Assembly (NCBI GenBank): GCA_041650855.1
Contig: JBAZKJ010000001.1
Coordinates: 551,078 to 615,077, forward strand
DNA from: Candidatus Margulisiibacteriota bacterium
GTDB taxonomy: Bacteria > Margulisbacteria > WOR-1 > O2-12-FULL-45-9 > XYB2-FULL-48-7
Direction: 5' to 3'
Length of the DNA stretch: 64,000 nt
Within the stretch, counting starts at the first letter, position 1, and every line of letters begins with the position of its first letter. The notes under the pieces were generated by a model that was given only the letters and a program-made list of their open reading frames with translations, had not been told where the DNA came from and searched no databases. A program made the translations under genes and the position numbers. Shown here in pieces: positions 6,514 through 38,394 of this stretch.

Positions 6514-6738
6514 ATGCCAGTACCGAAAAAACGACACTCGAACATCAGGCAGGGAAAGCGGCGGTTTTCCAATTATCGTTTAAAGTCGACCAACATCGGC
6601 AAATGCCCGCAATGCGGCGCCCCGGCTCTCCCGCACCAGGTTTGCATGAACTGCGGCACCTATAAGGGGAAGCAGGTCATCAAGCTCAAGGAAAAGAAAG
6701 GGGAGAAGAAAGGGAAACAGAAGGGACCTAAAGAGTGA
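6514..6738 (+). CDS. rpmF: 50S ribosomal protein L32
   Basis: 74 aa. MPVPKKRHS N-terminus and a CPxCG ... CxxCG zinc ribbon. Confidence 0.9.
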   Translation: MPVPKKRHSNIRQGKRRFSNYRLKSTNIGKCPQCGAPALPHQVCMNCGTYKGKQVIKLKEKKGEKKGKQKGPKE

Positions 6739-7721
6739 TCCGGATCGCCCTCGACGCCATGGGGGGCGATCACGCCCCCGGCGAGATAGTCAAAGGCGCT
6801 GTTCTCGCTTCCCTTGAATACCCGGTCAGCATCAGTCTGGTCGGCGATAAACCGCGGCTCGAAAAAGAGCTTTCCCAGTACAAAAAACGGGGAAACCTCT
6901 CCATTGTCCACGCCACCGAAACGATCGGCAATGACGAGCCACCGGTTGCCGCCGTCAAGCAAAAAAAGGATTCTTCCCTCAACGTCGCCATCTCTCTGGT
7001 CAAGAATAAAGCGGCCGACGCCGTCGTCTCGGCCGGCAACACCGGCGCGCTTATGGCCGCCGGCCTCTTTGGGCTGGGGCGGGTGTCCGGCATTGAACGC
7101 CCGGCGATCGCCACTATTTTCCCTACCCCGGCGGGCCCGATCTTACTGTTAGACATGGGCGCTAACGTCGATTGCAAGCCGAAACATCTCCAGCAATTCG
7201 GCGAAATGGGGGCCCAGTACGCGGAGCACGTCATGCACATCAAGAACCCGCGCGTCGGCCTGCTCAACATCGGCGAAGAAAAGGAAAAAGGGAACCAGCT
7301 GGCAGTGGAAAGCTGGCCGCTCCTCAAGGAAGCCCGGATCAACTTTGTCGGCAACGTGGAATCGAAGGAGATCCTTTCCGCCAAGGTCGACGTGGTGGTC
7401 GCCGACGGCTTTGTCGGCAACTTAATATTAAAATTCGGCGAATCGATCAGCGCCTACACGGTCAATCTCCTCAAGCAGGAGCTCAACAAGAATTTGATCA
7501 CCAAGTTCGCCGCTTTTCTCCTTTTGCCGGCGCTCGGCAACATCAAGAAGAGCGTCGATTACGACGAGGCGGGCGGCGCGCCGATGCTCGGCATTAACGG
7601 CGTGGTTTACAAGGCGCACGGCCGGGCCAAGGCGAAAGCGATCAAGAACGCCGTCCGGGTCGCGATCGAGGCGGTCAAGGAAGACCTGGTCGGCTGTATC
7701 TCAAAAATGGAGGCAAGATGA
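6735..7721 (+). CDS. plsX: phosphate acyltransferase PlsX
   Basis: 328 aa. MIRIALDAMGGDHAP N-terminus is diagnostic of PlsX. Four-nt overlap with rpmF. Confidence 0.95.
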   Translation: MIRIALDAMGGDHAPGEIVKGAVLASLEYPVSISLVGDKPRLEKELSQYKKRGNLSIVHATETIGNDEPPVAAVKQKKDSSLNVAISLVKNKAADAVVSAGNTGALMAAGLFGLGRVSGIERPAIATIFPTPAGPILLLDMGANVDCKPKHLQQFGEMGAQYAEHVMHIKNPRVGLLNIGEEKEKGNQLAVESWPLLKEARINFVGNVESKEILSAKVDVVVADGFVGNLILKFGESISAYTVNLLKQELNKNLITKFAAFLLLPALGNIKKSVDYDEAGGAPMLGINGVVYKAHGRAKAKAIKNAVRVAIEAVKEDLVGCISKMEAR

Positions 7722-8680
7722 AAGCGAAGATACTCGGGACCGGTTCGGCTCTGCCCAGCAAGATCGTCACGAATGACGACCTCTCCAAGATCGTCGACAC
7801 CAATGACGCCTGGATCCAGGAACGGACCGGCATTAAGGAGCGCCGGGTCTCGGACGCGGGGACCGCGACCTCGGACCTCGCGCTGATCGCCGCCGAACGG
7901 GCGCTGGCCGCCGCGAAAATTTCTCCCGACCAGCTCGACCTGATAATCGTCTGCACCTGCAGCCCCGACATGCTCTTCCCGTCCACCGCCTGCATCCTCC
8001 AGGGGAAAATTAAGGCGACCAACGCGGCCGCTTTCGACCTCTCGGCCGCCTGTTCCGGCTTCAACTTCGGGTTAACGGCCGCCAGCAGCCTGATCCAGAG
8101 CGGCCAGTTCAAAACGATCCTCCTGGTCGGCGCTGATACCTTAACTAAATACTTGGATTGGACCGACCGCGGCACCTGCATCCTCTTCGGCGACGGGGCC
8201 GGAGCGGTCGTTTTAACCGCGACCGATAAGAACGAGGGGGTCCTGGCTAGCCTGATCCGGGCGGAAGGGAGCCTCGGCCATTTTCTGACGATGCCGGGGG
8301 GCGGTTCGCGCGACCCGGAAGAGAAAAACGGCCGTTTTATCAAGATGAACGGCAAGGAAGTGTTCAAATTCGCCGTTCGGGCGCTCGAGACCTCCGTCCG
8401 GGACATCCTGCTTCAGGCGGGAAAAACGATCGCCGACATCGACCTCTTCATCCCCCATCAGGCCAATATCAGGATAATTGAACATGTCAGCAAGAAGATG
8501 GGGTTGCCAAAGGAAAAGGTTTATGTTAATCTCCACAAGTACGGCAATACCTCGGCAGCTTCCGTCCCCATCGCCTTGGACGAAGCACTGGCTGAAGGGA
8601 AGATAAAATCAGGCGATCTTTTGATCCTTTCTGGTTTTGGTGCCGGATTAACCTACGGCTCGAATCTGATCAAATGGTAG
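7718..8680 (+). CDS. fabH: 3-oxoacyl-ACP synthase III
   Basis: 320 aa. N-terminal KILGTGSALP ... DAWIQERTGIKERR, an active-site Cys region (AACSGF) and a C-terminal GFGAGLTYG. Confidence 0.95.
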   Translation: MKAKILGTGSALPSKIVTNDDLSKIVDTNDAWIQERTGIKERRVSDAGTATSDLALIAAERALAAAKISPDQLDLIIVCTCSPDMLFPSTACILQGKIKATNAAAFDLSAACSGFNFGLTAASSLIQSGQFKTILLVGADTLTKYLDWTDRGTCILFGDGAGAVVLTATDKNEGVLASLIRAEGSLGHFLTMPGGGSRDPEEKNGRFIKMNGKEVFKFAVRALETSVRDILLQAGKTIADIDLFIPHQANIRIIEHVSKKMGLPKEKVYVNLHKYGNTSAASVPIALDEALAEGKIKSGDLLILSGFGAGLTYGSNLIKW

Positions 8681-8690
8681 GGGGTAAGTT

Positions 8691-9851
8691 ATGCTCGATT
8701 ATGGCTTGACCGAAGAACAACAGATGGTCCGCGACCTGGCCCGGAAAGTTTCTCTGGAAAAAGCCCTCCCCAAGCGGGCGGAATGGGACGAGACCGGCGA
8801 ATTCCCCTGGGAGGCGTTAAAAGCTTACGCGGCGGCGGACCTCTGCGGCCTCTACATCCCGGAAGACCTTGGCGGCATGGGCCAGAGCGTTTTTAATTTC
8901 TGCCTGGCCACCGAGGAGATCAGCCGGATCTGCGGCGGCGTCGGCGTCTCCTTTGCCGCTTCCGCCCTCGGCTCGACCCCGATCCTCCTCTTCGGCACCC
9001 CGGAACAGAAAAAGAAATACATGCCCGACATCGCCGCCGGCAAAAAACTGGCGGCTTTCGGCCTGACCGAAGCGAACGCCGGGTCGGACGCGGCCGGCAT
9101 GGAAACGACCGCCAAAAAAGACGGCGACTACTTCATCATTAACGGGACCAAACAGTGGATCACCAACGGCGGCGAAGCGGAAACCTATTCCGTGATCGCG
9201 ATCTCGGACAAGAACAAGGGGGCGCGCGGCGCCACCGCTTTTATCCTGGAAAAAGGGATGCCCGGCTTCACCTTCGGCAAGAAAGAGAACAAGATGGGGA
9301 TCCGCTGTTCCGCGACCCGCGAGCTCGTCTTCCAGGACTGCAAGGTCCACAAGAGCCAGATCCTCGGCCGGGAAGGGATGGGCTTCATCGTGGCGATGAA
9401 GACGCTCGATATGACGCGGCCCGGCATCGGCGCCCAGGCGGTCGGCATCGCCCAGGGGGCGCTGGATGAGGCGCTCAAGTACGCCCGCGAGCGGGTCCAG
9501 TTCGGCAAGCCGCTCAGCTCGCTGCAGGCGATCCAGCACATGCTGGCCGACATGTCGACCCAGATCGAAGCGGCCCGCTCGCTCGTCTACGCCTGCGCCC
9601 GGATGATCGACGCCGGCGCCAAGGACTTTACCCTCCCCGCCTGCCAGGCAAAGCTCTTCGCGTCCGACGTCGCGATGAAAGTGACGATCGACGCCATCCA
9701 GATCCTCGGCGGCTACGGCTACATGAAGGAGTATCCGGTCGAGAAGATGGCCCGCGACGCCAAGATCACCCAGATCTACGAGGGGACGAACCAGATCCAG
9801 CGGAACCAGATCGCCCTTTCGCTGATCAAAGAGCTGGCTTCTTCGAAGTAG
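8691..9851 (+). CDS. short-chain acyl-CoA dehydrogenase (Bcd/CarC-like)
   Basis: 386 aa. ACAD N-terminal, middle and C-terminal domains. Catalytic Glu lies in the YEGTNQIQR motif. Confidence 0.9.
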   Translation: MLDYGLTEEQQMVRDLARKVSLEKALPKRAEWDETGEFPWEALKAYAAADLCGLYIPEDLGGMGQSVFNFCLATEEISRICGGVGVSFAASALGSTPILLFGTPEQKKKYMPDIAAGKKLAAFGLTEANAGSDAAGMETTAKKDGDYFIINGTKQWITNGGEAETYSVIAISDKNKGARGATAFILEKGMPGFTFGKKENKMGIRCSATRELVFQDCKVHKSQILGREGMGFIVAMKTLDMTRPGIGAQAVGIAQGALDEALKYARERVQFGKPLSSLQAIQHMLADMSTQIEAARSLVYACARMIDAGAKDFTLPACQAKLFASDVAMKVTIDAIQILGGYGYMKEYPVEKMARDAKITQIYEGTNQIQRNQIALSLIKELASSK

Positions 9852-9852
9852 C

Positions 9853-10635
9853 ATGGACATCATCGTTTGTATCAAGCAGGTTCCGGATACAACCGAGGTC
9901 CGGATCAATCCGGAGACCAACACCCTCATCCGCGAAGGCGTTCCCTCCATTGTTAACCCTTTCGACGAAAATGCCGTCGAAGCCGCCCTGCAGTTAAAGG
10001 AAAAACACGGCGGCAAAGTAACGGTCGTCACCATGGGCCCGCCGCAGGCGGCCGAAGCGCTCAAGACGACGGTCGCCATGGGAGCGGACGAAGTCGTGCT
10101 CGTTTCCGACCGCGCCTTTGCCGGCTCCGACACCTGGGCCACTTCCTACACCCTCTCGCAAACGATCAAGCAGCTCGGGCATTATGACCTGATCCTCTGC
10201 GGCAAGCAGGCGATCGACGGCGATACCGCCCAGGTCGGTCCCGGCATCGCCGAATGGCTGGGCATACCGCAAGTCACCTTCGCGGTCAAGGTCGAGGTCA
10301 ACGGTCCCAAGCTGACGGTGGAAAGAATGCTGGAGGAGAACAACGAAAAGGTGGAATGCCCTCTCCCGGCCGTTATTACCGTCGTCAAACAGATGAACGA
10401 GCCGCGCCTCCCCTCCCTCAAAGGGATGATGCGGGCCAAAAAAGCGGAAGTTAAGATGATGAACGCCGCGCAGATCGAGGGCGACCCCAAGAACCTCGGC
10501 CTGAACGGCTCCCCCACTTCGGTCGTCCGGATCTTCACCCCGCCGGCGAAAGGCGGCGGCCAGATCCTGGCCGGCGAGCCGGCGGAGATCGTGGATAAAC
10601 TGCTCGGCAAGCTCAAAGAGAGGAAGACGATCTGA
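9853..10635 (+). CDS. etfB: electron transfer flavoprotein beta subunit
   Basis: 260 aa. MDIIVCIKQVPDT N-terminus is typical of EtfB. Confidence 0.9.
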   Translation: MDIIVCIKQVPDTTEVRINPETNTLIREGVPSIVNPFDENAVEAALQLKEKHGGKVTVVTMGPPQAAEALKTTVAMGADEVVLVSDRAFAGSDTWATSYTLSQTIKQLGHYDLILCGKQAIDGDTAQVGPGIAEWLGIPQVTFAVKVEVNGPKLTVERMLEENNEKVECPLPAVITVVKQMNEPRLPSLKGMMRAKKAEVKMMNAAQIEGDPKNLGLNGSPTSVVRIFTPPAKGGGQILAGEPAEIVDKLLGKLKERKTI

Positions 10636-11864
10636 TGAGCATTAAAATCTTACTGGATAAATGTACGGGCTGCACTCTTTGCGTCAAAGCCTGCCCGTTC
10701 GCGGCGATCAAAATGATCGACCGCCCGGCCGACGCTCCCGGCAAGGGAAAAAAAGTCGCGGTCATCGACCTTGACACCTGTACCCTGTGCGGCGCCTGCG
10801 TCGAGTCCTGCAAGTTCGGCGCGATCGAGCTGAAAAAAGAGCTCGGCGGCACCGACCACGATCTCTCGCATTTTAAAGGCGTCTGGGTTTTCGCCGAACA
10901 GCGCGAAGGCAAGGTCCAGGCGGTCGCTTATGAGCTCCTGACCGAAGGGAGAAAACTGGCCGGCGACCTGAAGACCGAGATCTGCGCCATCCTCTGCGGC
11001 GACGCCGCTATTGAGGAAGAGGTCGAACACCTTTTCGCTTACGGCGCGGATAAAGTTTACCTGATCACCCATCCGGAGCTTAAGCATTACCACACCGCCC
11101 CCTACACCAGCGCGGTCGCCGAGGCGATCACCAAGTACAAACCGGAAATAATGCTCCTGGGCGCGACGACCATGGGCCGCGATCTCGCCGCCCGCCTGGC
11201 GATCCGGGTCGGCGCCGGCTTAACGGCCGACTGCACCGGCCTCGATATCGATCCGGCCAAGAAAATTTTATTGCAGACCCGGCCCGCGTTCGGCGGCAAC
11301 ATCATGGCGACCATTCAAACCGTCCGGCACCGGCCGCAGATGTCAACGGTCCGCCCTAAAGTTTTTAAGAAGGTCAAGGTTGCTAACCCGAAAAAGGGCG
11401 AAGTCATTAAATTCCAGCCGGCGATCGGCGCCGAAGACCTGGCCGTTAAACTGCTGGAGGTCATTAAGGACGAGAGCGTTAAGGTGAACCTGGCCGAAGC
11501 GGAGATCATCGTCTCCGGCGGCCGCGGCCTGCAGGAAGCGAAGAACTTCAAATTGATCGAAGAGCTGGCTGCCGTCCTCGGCGGCGCGGTCGGCGCCTCG
11601 CGCGCTACCGTCGATGCCGGCTGGATCAGCGCTCACCACCAGGTCGGCCAGACCGGGAAAACTGTTTCGCCCAAACTTTATATCGCCTGCGGTATCGCCG
11701 GCAAGATCCAGCACCTGGCCGGTATGCAGTCTTCGGACACGATCGTCGCGATCAATAAGGACCCGGATGCGCCGATCTTCAAAGTCGCGACTTACGGTAT
11801 TGTCGGGGACCTGTTCGAATACGTCCCCTTGCTCACCCGCAAGATCAAAGAATTACGAGGTTAA
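10635..11864 (+). CDS. etfA: electron transfer flavoprotein alpha subunit with N-terminal 2x[4Fe-4S] ferredoxin domain (CarE-like)
   Basis: 409 aa. Two CxxCxxCxxxCP motifs in the first 65 aa, followed by an EtfA FAD-binding domain. Confidence 0.9.
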
Positions 11865-12740
11865 ATGACAACCGCTTTCGTATTCCCGGGCCAGGGGTCG
11901 CAGTCGGTGGGGATGGGGAAAGAGCTGGCCGAAAAATATCTCGACCGGGCCAATGCCGTCCTCGGCTTTGACCTGAAAAAGATCGTCCTGGAAGGCCCCG
12001 AGGATGAACTCAAGAAAACCGCTATCCAGCAGCCGGCTATTTTCACCGTTAGTGCTGCCATGTATGAGCGACTCGCGACCCGTGACCCGCGACCCGTGAC
12101 ATTTGCCGGCCATTCCCTCGGCGAATACTCGGCGTTATATGCCGCCGGCGTCATTTCGTTCGAGGACGGGGTCAAGACCGTTAACCTCCGCGGCCAGTAT
12201 ATGCAGGAAGCGGTCCCGGCCGGCCAGGGGGCGATGGCGGCCCTCCTTGGCGGCGACCGGCAAGCGATCGCTAACATTTGTAAAGAAGTTGGCAATGTCT
12301 GGCCGGCAAACTTTAACTCGCCCGGCCAGGTCGTTATTTCGGGGACCAAGTCAGGCGTTGACGCTGCCGCCGGGAAGCTGAAAGCGGCCGGCGTCAAAAA
12401 GATCATCCCGCTCGCCGTCTCCGCCCCTTTCCACTGCCCGCTGATGCAGCCGGCCGCGGATAAACTGGCGGAGCAGCTGAACAGGATCACCTTCCAGGAC
12501 GCGGCGATCCCGGTCTACGCTAACGTGACCGCCGCTCCCGTCACCGCCGCCGCCGAGATCAAACAGCTGTTAATTAAACAAGTTACCGGTTCTGTCCTCT
12601 GGGAAGATTCGATCAATAAAATGGTCGCTGCCGGAGTTAACTCGTTCGTGGAAGTCGGCCCGGGCAAAGTCTTGACCGGCCTGATCAAGAAGATCAACGC
12701 CGGCGTGGAGGTAAAAAGTTATGACGAATTTAAAGGATAA
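11865..12740 (+). CDS. fabD: malonyl CoA-ACP transacylase
   Basis: 291 aa. FVFPGQGSQ and GHSLGEYSAL active-site motifs. Confidence 0.95.
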   Translation: MTTAFVFPGQGSQSVGMGKELAEKYLDRANAVLGFDLKKIVLEGPEDELKKTAIQQPAIFTVSAAMYERLATRDPRPVTFAGHSLGEYSALYAAGVISFEDGVKTVNLRGQYMQEAVPAGQGAMAALLGGDRQAIANICKEVGNVWPANFNSPGQVVISGTKSGVDAAAGKLKAAGVKKIIPLAVSAPFHCPLMQPAADKLAEQLNRITFQDAAIPVYANVTAAPVTAAAEIKQLLIKQVTGSVLWEDSINKMVAAGVNSFVEVGPGKVLTGLIKKINAGVEVKSYDEFKG

Positions 12741-13464
12741 GGTCGCCTTGGTCACCGGCTCGGCCCAGGGGATCGGCAAGGCGATCGCCGTCGCGTTCGC
12801 CAAGGCCGGGGCGAACATCGTCGTTTCCGACATCAATCTGGAGCTGGCGCAGCAAACGGCCAAAGAGATCGCCGCGCTCGGCGTCAAAACGCTGGCGGTC
12901 AAGACCAACGTCGCCGATCCGGCCGACGTGGAAAGAGCGGTCGGCGAGATCGTCGCCGCCCTGGGGCGGATCGACATCCTGGTCAACAACGCCGGGATCA
13001 CCAAGGACAACTTGCTGGTCCGGATGAAGAAAGAGGAGTGGGACGCCGTCCTGGCCGTCAACCTGACCGGCGTCTTTAACTGCACCAAGACAGTTGGCAC
13101 CTTGATGATGAAGCAGCGGTGCGGTAAAATAGTGAATATCGCCTCGATCGTTGGCCAGATGGGGAATTTCGGCCAGGCCAACTACGCGGCGAGCAAGGGC
13201 GGGGTCATCGCCTTTACCAAGACGGTGGCCAAGGAGCTCTCTTCGCGGGGGGTCAATTGCAACGCGATCGCCCCCGGGTTCATCCAAACCGCGATGACGG
13301 ACAAATTGTCCGAGGACGTTAAGAAAAAAATGATGGAGCAGATCCCGCTCGGCAAGCTGGGCACGCCGGAAGACATCGCCAGCGCGGCGCTCTTCCTGTC
13401 GGGCCCGGAGTCCGATTACGTTACCGGTCAGGTCCTGGCCGTTAATGGCGGAATGTACATGTAG
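12721..13464 (+). CDS. fabG: 3-oxoacyl-ACP reductase
   Basis: 247 aa SDR. TGSAQGIGKAIA Rossmann motif, NNAGI and YAASKGG catalytic motifs. Confidence 0.95.
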   Translation: MTNLKDKVALVTGSAQGIGKAIAVAFAKAGANIVVSDINLELAQQTAKEIAALGVKTLAVKTNVADPADVERAVGEIVAALGRIDILVNNAGITKDNLLVRMKKEEWDAVLAVNLTGVFNCTKTVGTLMMKQRCGKIVNIASIVGQMGNFGQANYAASKGGVIAFTKTVAKELSSRGVNCNAIAPGFIQTAMTDKLSEDVKKKMMEQIPLGKLGTPEDIASAALFLSGPESDYVTGQVLAVNGGMYM

Positions 13465-13491
13465 TTTAGAGTTTAGTATTTAGAGTTTAAT
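13464..13491 (+). repeat. tandem heptamer array (G/A)TTTAGA x4 immediately upstream of acpP SD
   Basis: GTTTAGA GTTTAGT ATTTAGA GTTTAAT. AT-rich island in a 62% GC genome. Confidence 0.7.
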
Positions 13492-13507
13492 AAGGAGGAG
13501 GTGGAAC

Positions 13508-13753
13508 ATGGACGAAAATCAGGCTTTTGAAGCAGTTAAAAAGGTGGTCACCGAGCAGCTCGGCGTTTCCGACGCGGAAGTGAAGCGCGAGTCATCTTTC
13601 GTCGACGACCTGGGCGCCGATTCGCTCGACACCGTTGAGCTGGTCATGGCGTTGGAAGAGGCGTTCGGGATGGAAATTCCGGACGAGGACGCCGAGAAGA
13701 TCAAAACGATCGGCGATACCATTAATTACGTGATGCAACACGGAAAGAAGTAA
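13508..13753 (+). CDS. acpP: acyl carrier protein
   Basis: 81 aa. [18 protein letters not shown] phosphopantetheine attachment site. Strong SD AAGGAGGAGG. Confidence 0.95.
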
Positions 13754-13756
13754 AAC

Positions 13757-14719
13757 ATGGACCTGCCGCAGCTCAAAATAGATAAGCTGACCGCCCGGCT
13801 CCCGATCATTCAGGGAGGGATGGCGGTCAGGATCTCCACCGGGACGCTCGCCGGCGCGGTCGCCGCGACCGGCGCGATCGGCATTATCGGCGCCTCCGGG
13901 ATGGCTTTTGACGAGCTGCGGAAAGAGATCCAGATCGCGCGGGGGTTGGCGCGGGGAGGCATTGTCGGCATCAACATCATGTTTGCCGCCCGGGAGTTCT
14001 GGGGAATTGTCCAGACGGCCATTCAGGAGAAGATCGACCTGATCATCACCGGCGCTGGTTTTTCCCGAGACATTTTCAAGGTTGGACGGGACGGGAATAC
14101 TCCCATCGTCTCGATTGTCTCCTCCGCCCGCCTCGCCGAGACCGCCCAAAGGCTCGGCGCCGCGGCGATCGTGGTCGAAGGCAAGGAAGCGGGCGGGCAC
14201 CTCGGCACCGACCGCTCCGTCTGGGATATCTTCCCCGAGGTCCTGAAGGCGGTCAATTTACCGGTCATCGCCGCCGGCGGCATCATCAACGGCGCGGAAA
14301 TGTGCCGGGCCCTGAAAATGGGGGCGTCCGGCGTGCAGATCGCGACCCGCTTCGTCCTGGCCGAGGAGTGCGCCGCCGCCCCGGAATATAAGCGGAAGTA
14401 CCAAACGGCGACCAAGGATGACGTTGTCCTGATCTCTTCCCCGGTCGGCATGCCGGGCCGGGCGATCAAGTCGGCATTCGTCGAAAAGATCCTGGCGAAA
14501 AAAGCCCCCCGCCCCGTCGGCTGCGATTTCTGCCTCAAGCATTGTTCCCTGGAATACTGCATCATCCAGGCGCTGATCAACTCCCAGAAAGGGGACGTCG
14601 AGCATGGCGTGGTCTTCTCGGGCGAATACGTCTGGAAGATCCCCGACCGGTCGATCAAGCCGGCCGCCCAGATCGTTAAAGAGCTGGTCCAGGAAGCCGC
14701 GGAGGCGAAAGATTGCTGA
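13757..14719 (+). CDS. fabK: enoyl-ACP reductase FabK (NMO/2-nitropropane dioxygenase family, FMN)
   Basis: 320 aa. LPIIQGGMAVRIS ... AIGIIGASG N-terminus as in FabK. Sits inside the fab operon. Confidence 0.85.
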   Translation: MDLPQLKIDKLTARLPIIQGGMAVRISTGTLAGAVAATGAIGIIGASGMAFDELRKEIQIARGLARGGIVGINIMFAAREFWGIVQTAIQEKIDLIITGAGFSRDIFKVGRDGNTPIVSIVSSARLAETAQRLGAAAIVVEGKEAGGHLGTDRSVWDIFPEVLKAVNLPVIAAGGIINGAEMCRALKMGASGVQIATRFVLAEECAAAPEYKRKYQTATKDDVVLISSPVGMPGRAIKSAFVEKILAKKAPRPVGCDFCLKHCSLEYCIIQALINSQKGDVEHGVVFSGEYVWKIPDRSIKPAAQIVKELVQEAAEAKDC

Positions 14720-15954
14720 ACCCCAGGGTAGTGATCACCGGCCTCGGCGCCATTACCCCGATCGGCATCGGCAAGGACGCTTTTTGGGAGAACCTGTCCG
14801 CCGGTAAAAGCGGCGTTGGCCGCATTACCCACTTCGACCCGACCGGTTTTGACACGCAGATCGCCGCCCAGGTCAACGATTTCGATCCCTCCCTCTACAT
14901 GGACAAAAAAGAGGCGCGCCGCCTGGCCCGCTTCCTGCAATTCGCCATCGCCGCCGGCCAGCTCGCCGTCCAGGACGCCGGTCTGGCCATCACGCCCGAG
15001 AACGCGGCCGACATCGGCGTGATCGTCGGCTCCGGGATCGGCGGCATCGATTATTTGGAAGAGATGGCTTACACCTTGAAGGACAAGGGCCCCAGCCGCA
15101 TCTCTCCTTTCACCGTCCCCTACATGATCACCGACATGGCGGCCGGGATGATCTCGATCAAGACCGGCGCCAAAGGCCCGAACCTCTGCATCGTCACCGC
15201 CTGCGCGACCGGCACCCACTGCCTCGGCGAAGCTTATAAAACGATCCAGCGCGGCGCCGCCAAGGCGGTGATCGCCGGGGGCAGCGAGGCCGCCATCACC
15301 CCGCTCGGCGTGGCCAGCTTTATCGCGGCCGGCGCCCTGTCGAACCAGAACGCCGAACCAACCCGCGCCAGCCGGCCGTTCGATAAGGCGCGCAGCGGCT
15401 TTGTCATGGGCGAAGGGGCCGGCATCCTGGTCCTGGAAGAACTGGAGTTCGCCAAAGCGCGCGGCGCCAATATTCTGGCCGAGATCATCGGCTACGGCGC
15501 CAGCGGCGACGCCAACCACATCACCGCCCCCGCCCCCGGCGGCGAAGGGGCGGCTCGCGCCCTGCGGGCGGCGCTCAAAGACGCCAACCTTAAGCCGGAG
15601 GAGATCGATTACGTCAACGCCCACGGCACTTCGACCGAATTGAACGACAAATACGAGACCATGGCGCTCAAGACCGCTTTCGGCGACCACGCCCACAAGC
15701 TGGCGATCAGCTCCAATAAATCGATGGTCGGCCACCTGCTCGGCGCTTCCGGCGCGGTCGAGGCGATCGCCACCGTCATGTCGATCCGGCATCAGGTCGC
15801 TCCGCCCACGATCAACCAGGAGAATCCCGATCCGGAGTGCGACCTCGATTACGTGCCGAACCGGGCCCGGCCGCTGAAGATCACTACCGCCCTTTCCAGT
15901 TCTTTCGGTTTCGGCGGCCACAACGCGATCATTGTAGTCAAAAAATACGCCTGA
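14713..15954 (+). CDS. fabF: 3-oxoacyl-ACP synthase II
   Basis: 413 aa. Cys-His-His KAS II architecture (TACATGTHC ... NAHGTST ... GHLLGASG). Confidence 0.95.
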   Translation: MLNPRVVITGLGAITPIGIGKDAFWENLSAGKSGVGRITHFDPTGFDTQIAAQVNDFDPSLYMDKKEARRLARFLQFAIAAGQLAVQDAGLAITPENAADIGVIVGSGIGGIDYLEEMAYTLKDKGPSRISPFTVPYMITDMAAGMISIKTGAKGPNLCIVTACATGTHCLGEAYKTIQRGAAKAVIAGGSEAAITPLGVASFIAAGALSNQNAEPTRASRPFDKARSGFVMGEGAGILVLEELEFAKARGANILAEIIGYGASGDANHITAPAPGGEGAARALRAALKDANLKPEEIDYVNAHGTSTELNDKYETMALKTAFGDHAHKLAISSNKSMVGHLLGASGAVEAIATVMSIRHQVAPPTINQENPDPECDLDYVPNRARPLKITTALSSSFGFGGHNAIIVVKKYA

Positions 15955-37114: not shown

Positions 37115-38394
37115 ACGAAGTGAACATCGATATCAAGGAGATCATGAAAACGATCCCCCATCGTTACCCCTTCCTGCTGATCGACCGGGTGATCGAACTG
37201 GAAGAAGGAAAACGGGCCGTCGCCATCAAGAACGTGACGATGAACGAGCCGCAATTCACCGGCCATTTCCCCGGCATCCCGATCATGCCCGGCGTTCTTA
37301 TTATTGAAGCGCTCGCCCAGGTCGGCTGCGTCATGGCGCTCCGGCAGCCTTCGGCCGAAGGGAAGATCGTCCTTTTTGCCGGGATCGACGGCGTCCGCTT
37401 CCGGCGGCAGGTCATTCCCGGCGACCAGCTCCGGCTGGAGGTAGAAACTGTCTGGGTGCGCGGCCCGCTCGGCAAAATGAAGGGGAAGGCGACCGTTAAC
37501 GGCGAAGTCGCCGCTGAGGGCGAATTCACCTTCTCGCTCGCAGACCCGGCCGCCGGCAGCGCCAAGGTCCACCCAACCGCAACCGTCCACAAGAACGCCG
37601 TGCTGGGCAAGAACGTCGAGATCGGCCCCGACACCGTGATCGGCGCCGACGTCAAGATCGGCGACGGCACGAAAGTCGGCGCCCATTGCCTCATTACCGG
37701 CTGGACGACGATCGGCAAGGAGAACGCCATCCACAACGGGACGGCGATCGGCCTGCCGCCCCAGGACGTTAAATACAAAGGGGAAAAAGGCGAGATCATC
37801 ATCGGCGACAAGAACATCATCCGCGAGTTTGTCACGATCCACATCCCTTCCGCCGGCGGGGAGACGCGTATCGGCAACGAATGCTTCATCATGGTCCACG
37901 CCCACGTGCCGCACAACTGCCGGATCGGCAACCAGGTGATCCTCGGCGGGTACGTCGGTTTGGCCGGCTACACGGAGATCGGCGACCAGGTCATCATCGG
38001 CGGGCTGGCGGGGGTCCACCAGTTCTGCCGGATCGGCCGGCTGACGATGGTCGGCGCCCAGTCCAAGGTCACCCAGGATATCGCCCCGTTCATGCTGGTG
38101 GAAGGGAACCCGGCGCAGGTCCGCGGGATCAACAGCATCGGCATCCAGCGGCGCGGCATCAGCCAGGAATCCCATTCGGAGATCAAGAAAGCGTTCAAGC
38201 TCCTCTACGAATCGGGCCACACTACCGCCGAAGCCGCCAAAGAGATCAAGAAACGGCTCCGGCCGCTCCCCGAGATCGAGCAGATCGTCGCTTTCCTCGA
38301 ACAGGAAAGCCACCGCGGGATCAGCAAGAAGACCGCCCTGGAAGAAGAGGCGGAAGAGCTGCTTCTCCCCGACATCCCCGAACTCGGCATATGA
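37111..38394 (+). CDS. bifunctional 3-hydroxyacyl-ACP dehydratase FabZ / UDP-GlcNAc acyltransferase LpxA fusion
   Basis: Residues 1-150 form a FabZ hot-dog fold ([25 protein letters not shown]). Residues 160-427 carry LpxA hexapeptide repeats and a C-terminal helical domain. Confidence 0.9.

Follow-up and report, generated by a model that had tools for sequence, protein, structure and literature searches.

A window of 64,000 nucleotides was analysed, comprising positions 551,078 to 615,077 of contig JBAZKJ010000001.1 from a Candidatus Margulisiibacteriota bacterium (assembly GCA_041650855.1). On its plus strand, three genes for an acyl-CoA dehydrogenase (ACAD) and the two subunits of an electron-transfer flavoprotein (Etf) lie inside an operon for type II fatty-acid synthesis (fab). 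The genes are tightly coupled in the order plsX-fabH-ACAD-etfB-Fd::etfA-fabD-fabG-acpP-NMO-fabF, where Fd denotes a ferredoxin domain and NMO an iron-sulfur protein of the NMO family, and yceD and rpmF precede plsX. The first gene of the trio (8691..9851; three ACAD Pfam domains) encodes a Bcd-like acyl-thioester dehydrogenase, which we propose as the catalytic subunit of an enoyl-acyl carrier protein (enoyl-ACP) reductase. It is followed by the gene for EtfB, the small subunit, of bifurcating type by its motifs (9853..10635; PF01012), and by that for EtfA (10635..11864; Fer4, ETF and ETF_alpha domains), whose N-terminal 2x[4Fe-4S] ferredoxin domain covers approximately residues 1-78 (nt 10635-10868) and contains C..C..C...C motifs at residues 10-20 and 49-59. 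The fabH stop and the ACAD start are separated by 10 nt and the ACAD stop and the etfB start by 1 nt, the etfB stop overlaps the etfA start (TGATG), and the fabD ATG directly follows the etfA stop. The G+C content is even over the operon region, and a promoter and terminator scan yielded 26 terminator-like sites against 18 +/- 4 expected, with none above chance inside the operon. The open reading frames, the Pfam and NCBIfam matches and the junctions therefore bear out the placement of the trio within the fab operon by a first-pass annotation of this DNA. We predict, with moderate confidence, that these three proteins constitute an Etf-dependent, probably bifurcating, enoyl-ACP reductase that replaces FabI.

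The Etf belongs by its motifs to the bifurcating type

Bifurcating Etfs were characterized by Kayastha et al. 2022 (PMC9232219) through three EtfB motifs and one EtfA arginine: DGDTAQVGP binds the second (bifurcating) FAD and is missing in non-bifurcating Etfs, RxFxG is the NADH site, SPT is an anchor, and the arginine (LctC R205) hydrogen-bonds N5 of the bifurcating FAD. The EtfB of the window contains RAFAG (RxFxG) at residues 87-91, an exact DGDTAQVGP at 122-130 and SPT at 220-222, with residue numbers nearly as published, and EtfA Arg216, in QTRPAFGGN, aligns with LctC Arg205 (7QH2_A) and with the same arginine in 6FAH, 7KOE, 5OL2 and 4KPU. For both subunits, the five bifurcating or confurcating Etfs of known structure rank first among the solved relatives, and human and Paracoccus Etf reach less than half the score of the bifurcating ones. 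With all four sequence marks present, the Etf is of the bifurcating type as far as motifs can tell, in agreement with the first-pass annotation, which had named the second FAD-binding motif as the feature to examine. Its description of EtfA as CarE-like also holds, given the two cysteine motifs and an alignment of residues 1-404 with CarE (6FAH_A) at 434 bits over the full length, both [4Fe-4S] motifs included. CarD, at 273 bits, is likewise the best solved relative of EtfB.

The dehydrogenase is Bcd-like and belongs to a separate clade

The ACAD is the only one in its genome, which measures 1.85 Mb and is 95% complete. Its best solved relatives are the Bcd proteins 4L1F of A. fermentans and 5OL2_C of C. 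difficile (406 and 403 bits), both partners of bifurcating Etfs (4KPU and 5OL2), with which the trio shares the order bcd-etfB-etfA and, in EtfB and EtfA, the bifurcating motifs (252-312 bits). The trio had been likened as a whole to CarCDE of Acetobacterium woodii (6FAH); this stands for the Etf and fails for the ACAD, against which CarC scores 321 bits, below both Bcds and many other ACADs, and the neighbours of the trio are fab genes rather than a caffeate pathway. The catalytic Glu364, in YEGT, is invariant in 27 relatives. Among the NCBIfam models AcrC fits best, at 438 bits against a cut-off of 640, and no equivalog cut-off is reached, whether for AcrC, cyclohexanecarbonyl-CoA dehydrogenase, FadE or others. 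Overall, the enzyme stands closest to the Bcd of bifurcating complexes.

An exhaustive search of 1.8 billion representative proteins returned homologues of at most about 53% identity outside the ACAD's own clade; one of the nearest representatives, P0007, is encoded on a contig of 2 kb. Clade members at 64-74% identity were found in many phyla by a scan of species-representative genomes, including Nitrospirota/Thermodesulfovibrionales, Omnitrophota, Bacillota, Planctomycetota, Verrucomicrobiota, Firestonebacteria, Edwardsbacteria, Ratteibacteria and Thermodesulfobacteriota. In a tree with 115 other Bcd-like representatives at <=53% identity, the 113 clade sequences were monophyletic with a support of 0.956.

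The trio is an old part of the operon and is linked to fab genes in other phyla

The identical trio-bearing operon was present in 20 of 20 relatives from 10 families, among which the ACAD is the best-conserved operon protein (76-93% identity), and the same gene order recurs in other classes of the phylum (Margulisbacteria/Saganbacteria). The trio is thus an old part of the operon, and the recent insertion that the first-pass annotation had considered is not borne out. Outside the phylum, the best 80 loci were examined for fab neighbours. Fab genes lie beside the ACAD on the same strand at 39 of them, arranged as fabH-ACAD-etfBA-fabD (15 loci), with the ACAD after fabF (19 loci) or otherwise (5 loci). 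Two insertion points in the fab operons of many phyla argue for function rather than accident. Most of these fab-linked operons contain no NMO gene, as is the case for the trio-bearing fab operons of Nitrospirota, Firestonebacteria and Omnitrophota. On a closed 1.14-Mb Omnitrophota chromosome, the order is fabG-acpP-fabF-ACAD-etfB-Fd::etfA; FabI and any NMO protein are absent, the two weak matches to the NMO model being GuaB3 and PyrD (dihydroorotate dehydrogenase). Four further genomes of other phyla carry NMO-family genes elsewhere, so that the trio is not the sole candidate there.

Some departures from this layout were also seen. In several relatives the gap between ACAD and etfB holds an insert of 2-3.7 kb (L020:3845-7539 in genome G017, L015:7165-9006 in G004, and loci L019 and L022) with an opposite-strand open reading frame of 613-739 aa that has no Pfam match, so that the trio is split and the rest of the operon kept; the G017 insert additionally has a 380-aa Ser/Thr-kinase-like gene on the operon strand. 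In genome G063 (L044:1931-2935) the trio lies outside the fab operon, beside a divergently oriented NMO protein without the cysteine motif and 28% identical to that of the window, such that a FabK-type enzyme adjoins the ACAD-Etf. A metagenome-assembled genome labelled 'uncultured actinobacterium' (L070, CAMTWV010000002.1) contains the complete operon of Margulisbacteria type, with the Fe-S NMO gene; since this operon groups with Margulisbacteria operons in the fab-protein tree, the genome may be mislabelled.

FabI and an acyl-CoA pathway are missing from the genome

The genome encodes one ACAD, one Etf, one NMO and three SDRs. The SDRs are FabG, a generic SDR and a further FabG-like protein whose gene lies in a small KAS/ACP cluster; neither FabI nor FabL is among them. 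FabI had no match in this genome at E<=1e-12, and FabL and a true FabK were likewise not found there. Because the NMO neighbour is also no FabK, as set out below, the trio appears to be the main enoyl reductase rather than a second one working beside FabK, which is how the first-pass annotation had presented it. Of 146 genomes of the phylum, 51 had a true FabI in a search with E. coli FabI (35-49% identity, E<=8e-35), 83 had the ACAD clade, and no genome had both. In family f50, the operon plsX-fabH-fabD-fabG-acpP-FeS-NMO-fabF has no trio and FabI is encoded elsewhere in the genome, which is the combination of FabX and FabI seen in H. pylori; in the neighbouring family f49, the trio is absent and a second FabK-like NMO is present. 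In a tree of concatenated PlsX, FabH, FabD, FabG and FabF, the operons without the trio branch within the trio-bearing operons of Margulisbacteria, for which loss of the trio is the simplest reading.

There is, in addition, no butyrate or beta-oxidation route found for the ACAD to serve. An ECH_1 crotonase, a 3-hydroxyacyl-CoA dehydrogenase (3HCDH) above cut-off and a true thiolase were all not found in the genome, whose thiolase-model matches are FabH- and FabF-like proteins, and crotonase occurs in 57 of the 146 phylum genomes but in only 2 of the 65 belonging to this class. A pyruvate:ferredoxin-type oxidoreductase indicates that ferredoxin metabolism is present; a search of the genome for FeFe hydrogenase found none.

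The NMO-family protein resembles FabX rather than FabK

The gene at 13757..14719 (+), between acpP and fabF, had been taken for fabK. This identification did not survive: the protein scores 188.5 bits with the FabK model TIGR03151, whose cut-off is 453.1, and over its final 106 residues it matches H. pylori FabX (7E1Q) in the [4Fe-4S] subdomain with an E value of 1.5e-8, compared with 0.08 for T. maritima FabK. A canonical FabK is ruled out by the sub-threshold score together with this FabX-type C-terminal part. Its catalytic His148 lies in GGH. Of its cysteines 256, 259, 263 and 268, the last three align with FabX Cys304, 308 and 320, and Cys256 is one position off Cys300; no change of Cys259, 263 or 268 or of His148 occurs in 24 relatives. 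The structure model (pLDDT 92.6) has the NMO fold and gives its highest query-normalised TM-scores, 0.89-0.90, with FabX, versus 0.81-0.85 with FabKs (Foldseek). The protein also differs from FabX, being about 31% identical in the structural alignment and about 45 residues shorter, with CX2C in place of CX3C and a gene inside the fab operon. The authors of the FabX work counted homologues at >50% identity; at only about 31%, we call this protein FabX-like rather than a FabX orthologue. Since the host is an anaerobe, O2 cannot be its electron acceptor, another difference from FabX, which raises the question of what accepts electrons from a FabX-type enzyme without oxygen.

In H. pylori, FabX is the unsaturated-fatty-acid enzyme, a [4Fe-4S] dehydrogenase/isomerase of decanoyl-ACP, and works beside FabI. 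By analogy, the NMO beside acpP is most likely a FabX-type enzyme that would make the cis-3 intermediate for unsaturated fatty acids, and the link to unsaturated fatty acids that had been suggested for the trio fits this gene better. Overall, what the first-pass annotation had observed at this locus is confirmed except for the identity of "fabK", and its interpretation is supported in part.

The trio as a candidate enoyl-ACP reductase

An enoyl-thioester reduction tied to fatty-acid synthesis, as first proposed for these genes, is the best reading of the trio. ACAD, EtfB and Fd::EtfA would form a complex of the Bcd-EtfAB/CarCDE type, recruited into type II fatty-acid synthesis. Judging from the solved homologues, a hydride from NADH would pass to the bifurcating FAD in EtfB, from which one electron would reach the ACAD flavin by way of the FAD that the mobile domain of EtfA carries. 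At the ACAD flavin, trans-2-enoyl-ACP, or another enoyl-pantetheine thioester, would be reduced to acyl-ACP. The other electron, of low potential, would pass to ferredoxin along the two [4Fe-4S] clusters in the N-terminal domain of EtfA, so that each elongation cycle would use 2 NADH and form reduced ferredoxin. The ACP substrate, the reductive direction and the bifurcation itself are what we infer here. The trio would thereby differ from Bcd-EtfAB in its proposed substrate, enoyl-ACP, as it already differs in its separate clade at <=53% identity, in the extra 2x[4Fe-4S] domain of its EtfA, and in its place in a fab operon, away from any gene for thiolase, Hbd or crotonase, none of which was found in the genome. 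With FabI, FabK, FabL and FabV it would share the reaction and the place in the pathway, and within the phylum it occurs exactly where FabI is absent; unlike these single SDR or NMO proteins, it consists of an FAD-dependent ACAD and a two-subunit Etf, with unrelated fold and cofactors, and would use 2 NADH and ferredoxin. No description of an Etf-dependent or bifurcating enoyl-ACP reductase was found in the literature searched.

Antibiotics classically target the enoyl reduction of bacterial fatty-acid synthesis, a step that has been thought to be covered by FabI, FabL, FabV and FabK. If our reading is true, an unrelated enzyme class would be added to the enoyl-ACP reductases, and lipid synthesis in many uncultured anaerobes without any known reductase would be explained. 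Bifurcation would then be built into an anabolic pathway, with low-potential electrons recovered from a very exergonic reduction. What this analysis adds is the complementarity with FabI, the trio-less sister operon with FabI, the near-absence of crotonase from the class and the FabX-like nature of the "FabK". A further step, which we put forward only tentatively, is that ACAD-Etf represents a sixth, unrelated and bifurcating class of enoyl-ACP reductase in many anaerobic phyla, where it would be the standard enzyme of Margulisbacteria, Nitrospirota, Omnitrophota, Firestonebacteria and others. Fatty-acid synthesis would in that case be partly energy-conserving, since each elongation cycle would yield reduced ferredoxin. 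In Margulisbacteria, the EtfA ferredoxin domain might also supply the FabX-like Fe-S enzyme and so open an oxygen-independent FabX route to unsaturated fatty acids.

Several observations weigh against an enoyl-ACP reductase. Relative to ordinary Bcd-like enzymes, the ACAD has a single clade-specific position, Y4, and with almost no clade-specific residues its sequence gives no sign that ACP has replaced CoA as the carrier. The ACAD has a less negative net charge than Bcd-like enzymes (-0.7 vs -5.1), a difference too weak to use, and a predicted complex of the ACAD dimer with ACP scored 0.01, which weighs neither for nor against binding. No fab neighbour was present at 41 of the 80 loci of other phyla. 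The consulted part of Matheus Carnevali et al. 2019 (PMC6349859) places "Bcd/EtfAB" in all Saganbacteria and some relatives and judges it non-bifurcating, and that part of the paper leaves the fab context unmentioned; the motifs found here contradict this judgement, and reconstructions of Saganbacteria and Margulisbacteria that list the genes as non-bifurcating Bcd/Etf would be corrected accordingly. In families f15, f44 and f45 (loci L043, L046, L047 and L058), EtfA is 329-335 aa long and begins without a ferredoxin domain, in an operon that shows no other change; the domain was therefore gained or lost within the phylum. The complementarity with FabI could partly mirror a split between aerobic and anaerobic lineages, and its counts come from related genomes and are non-independent. 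FabV (PF12242, PF12241) had no match in the genome or in the 146 phylum genomes, and as no control genome matched either, its absence is not demonstrated. Finally, almost all genomes of the class have the FabX-like NMO, an enzyme that could reduce enoyl-ACP on its own.

This last point leads to the main rival explanation, which we regard as unlikely: enoyl-ACP would in truth be reduced by the Fe-S NMO, as a variant of FabK that draws its electrons not from NAD(P)H but from ferredoxin or the ferredoxin domain of EtfA. The trio would then be an accessory that provides electrons of low potential and perhaps reduces a second enoyl-ACP at the same time, in which case both bifurcation branches would end in fatty-acid synthesis. 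The position of the gene between acpP and fabF agrees with this, as does its membership of the FabK/FabX family (E 4.6e-43 to T. maritima FabK, Foldseek TM 0.81-0.90) and its co-occurrence with the trio in 63 of the 65 genomes of the class. One 97%-complete genome (G068) has the NMO and neither the ACAD clade nor FabI, and overexpressed FabX partly rescues FabK inhibition in F. nucleatum (PMC11091888). However, the C-terminal Fe-S subdomain of the NMO takes the place of the part with which FabK binds NAD(P)H (PMC8626469), and the NMO coexists with FabI in f50, like FabX in H. pylori. The reverse of G068 also exists, as G046 (94% complete) keeps the trio and has neither NMO nor FabI, the trio-bearing fab operons of Nitrospirota, Firestonebacteria and Omnitrophota do without an NMO gene, and the closed Omnitrophota genome encodes no NMO protein anywhere. 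Moreover, f44 and f45 retain the NMO even though their EtfA has no ferredoxin domain to feed it. The trio genomes without NMO and the coexistence of NMO with FabI speak against this explanation, though not decisively, and the trio stays our preferred candidate for the enoyl-ACP reductase.

Two other roles for the ACAD-Etf would keep the genes and change the reaction. It might run oxidatively, as an acyl-ACP dehydrogenase that introduces a trans-2 double bond while the Etf removes the electrons, as part of a route that backtracks to make unsaturated fatty acids or fatty acids modified in some other way. Acyl-ACP and acyl-carrier dehydrogenases of the ACAD family do exist, MbtN and prolyl-carrier dehydrogenases being among the weaker matches of this ACAD, FabX shows that backtracking dehydrogenation takes place in fatty-acid synthesis, and the FabA/FabZ family is represented in the genome by one FabZ, with no match to FabA. 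We nevertheless consider it improbable, given that the NMO would then be the only recognised enoyl reductase candidate of the genome, the exact complementarity with FabI would go unexplained, Etfs of the bifurcating type that have an NADH site usually work from NADH towards the enoyl thioester (PMC9232219), and a FabX-like gene is already present for such a job. Least probable of all, to the point where we give it hardly any weight, is an ordinary Bcd-EtfAB of fermentation or beta-oxidation, with crotonyl-CoA or other acyl-CoAs as its substrates, whose place in the fab operon is accidental. The solved Bcd relatives, the AcrC model as best match, the want of clade-specific active-site changes and the Bcd/EtfAB label in the consulted part of PMC6349859 would all suit it. 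Against it stand the missing crotonase, 3-hydroxyacyl-CoA dehydrogenase and thiolase and the rarity of crotonase in the class, the NCBIfam equivalog scores that are all under cut-off, the coupling of start and stop codons with fabH and fabD, the linkage to fab genes in many phyla in two main gene orders, and the nearest homologue from a classical thiolase-Hbd cluster (P0009), which is only 52% identical and falls outside the clade.

Other genes of the operon and of the genome

The remaining operon genes, all on the plus strand, have clear assignments. The first lipid gene after yceD-rpmF is plsX for phosphate acyltransferase (6735..7721; TIGR00182, 370 bits vs a cut-off of 243), followed by fabH for KAS III (7718..8680; NF006829, 447 bits, and TIGR00747, 422 bits, both over cut-off). 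Downstream of the trio lie fabD (11865..12740; TIGR00128, 360 bits), fabG (12721..13464; TIGR01830, 333.5 bits) and, after the NMO gene, fabF (14713..15954; TIGR03150, 631.6 bits), each over its cut-off, and acpP for the acyl carrier protein (13508..13753), recognised by NF002148 at 120.6 bits and by an alignment that shows the DSLD motif. The stretch between fabG and acpP (13464-13507) is the operon's sole real intergenic gap; it contains a tandem array of the heptamer (G/A)TTTAGA that precedes a strong GGAGGAGG ribosome-binding site. The sequencing runs matching the stretch are landfill and wastewater DNA only, with no RNA run among them.

Further along the window, a FabZ domain at 37153..37521 on the plus strand (G000:C1:588230-588598; PF07977, 118.8 bits) is the sole match to the FabA/FabZ family in the genome, with no match for a separate FabA. 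The 450-aa open frame that holds it is probably an lpxC-fabZ fusion, to judge from the frame length only. A second small cluster of the same genome, on the minus strand (L040:6454-9099; G000:C2:646453-649098), encodes a FabG-like SDR together with an ACP-like protein of the PRK09184 type, a KAS II-like protein of 387 aa and a KAS fragment of 172 aa, and a second FabH-like gene lies on contig C4 (L036:1384-2379). These genes may belong to an acyl-chain pathway of their own, such as one leading to lipid A or to a polyene-type lipid.

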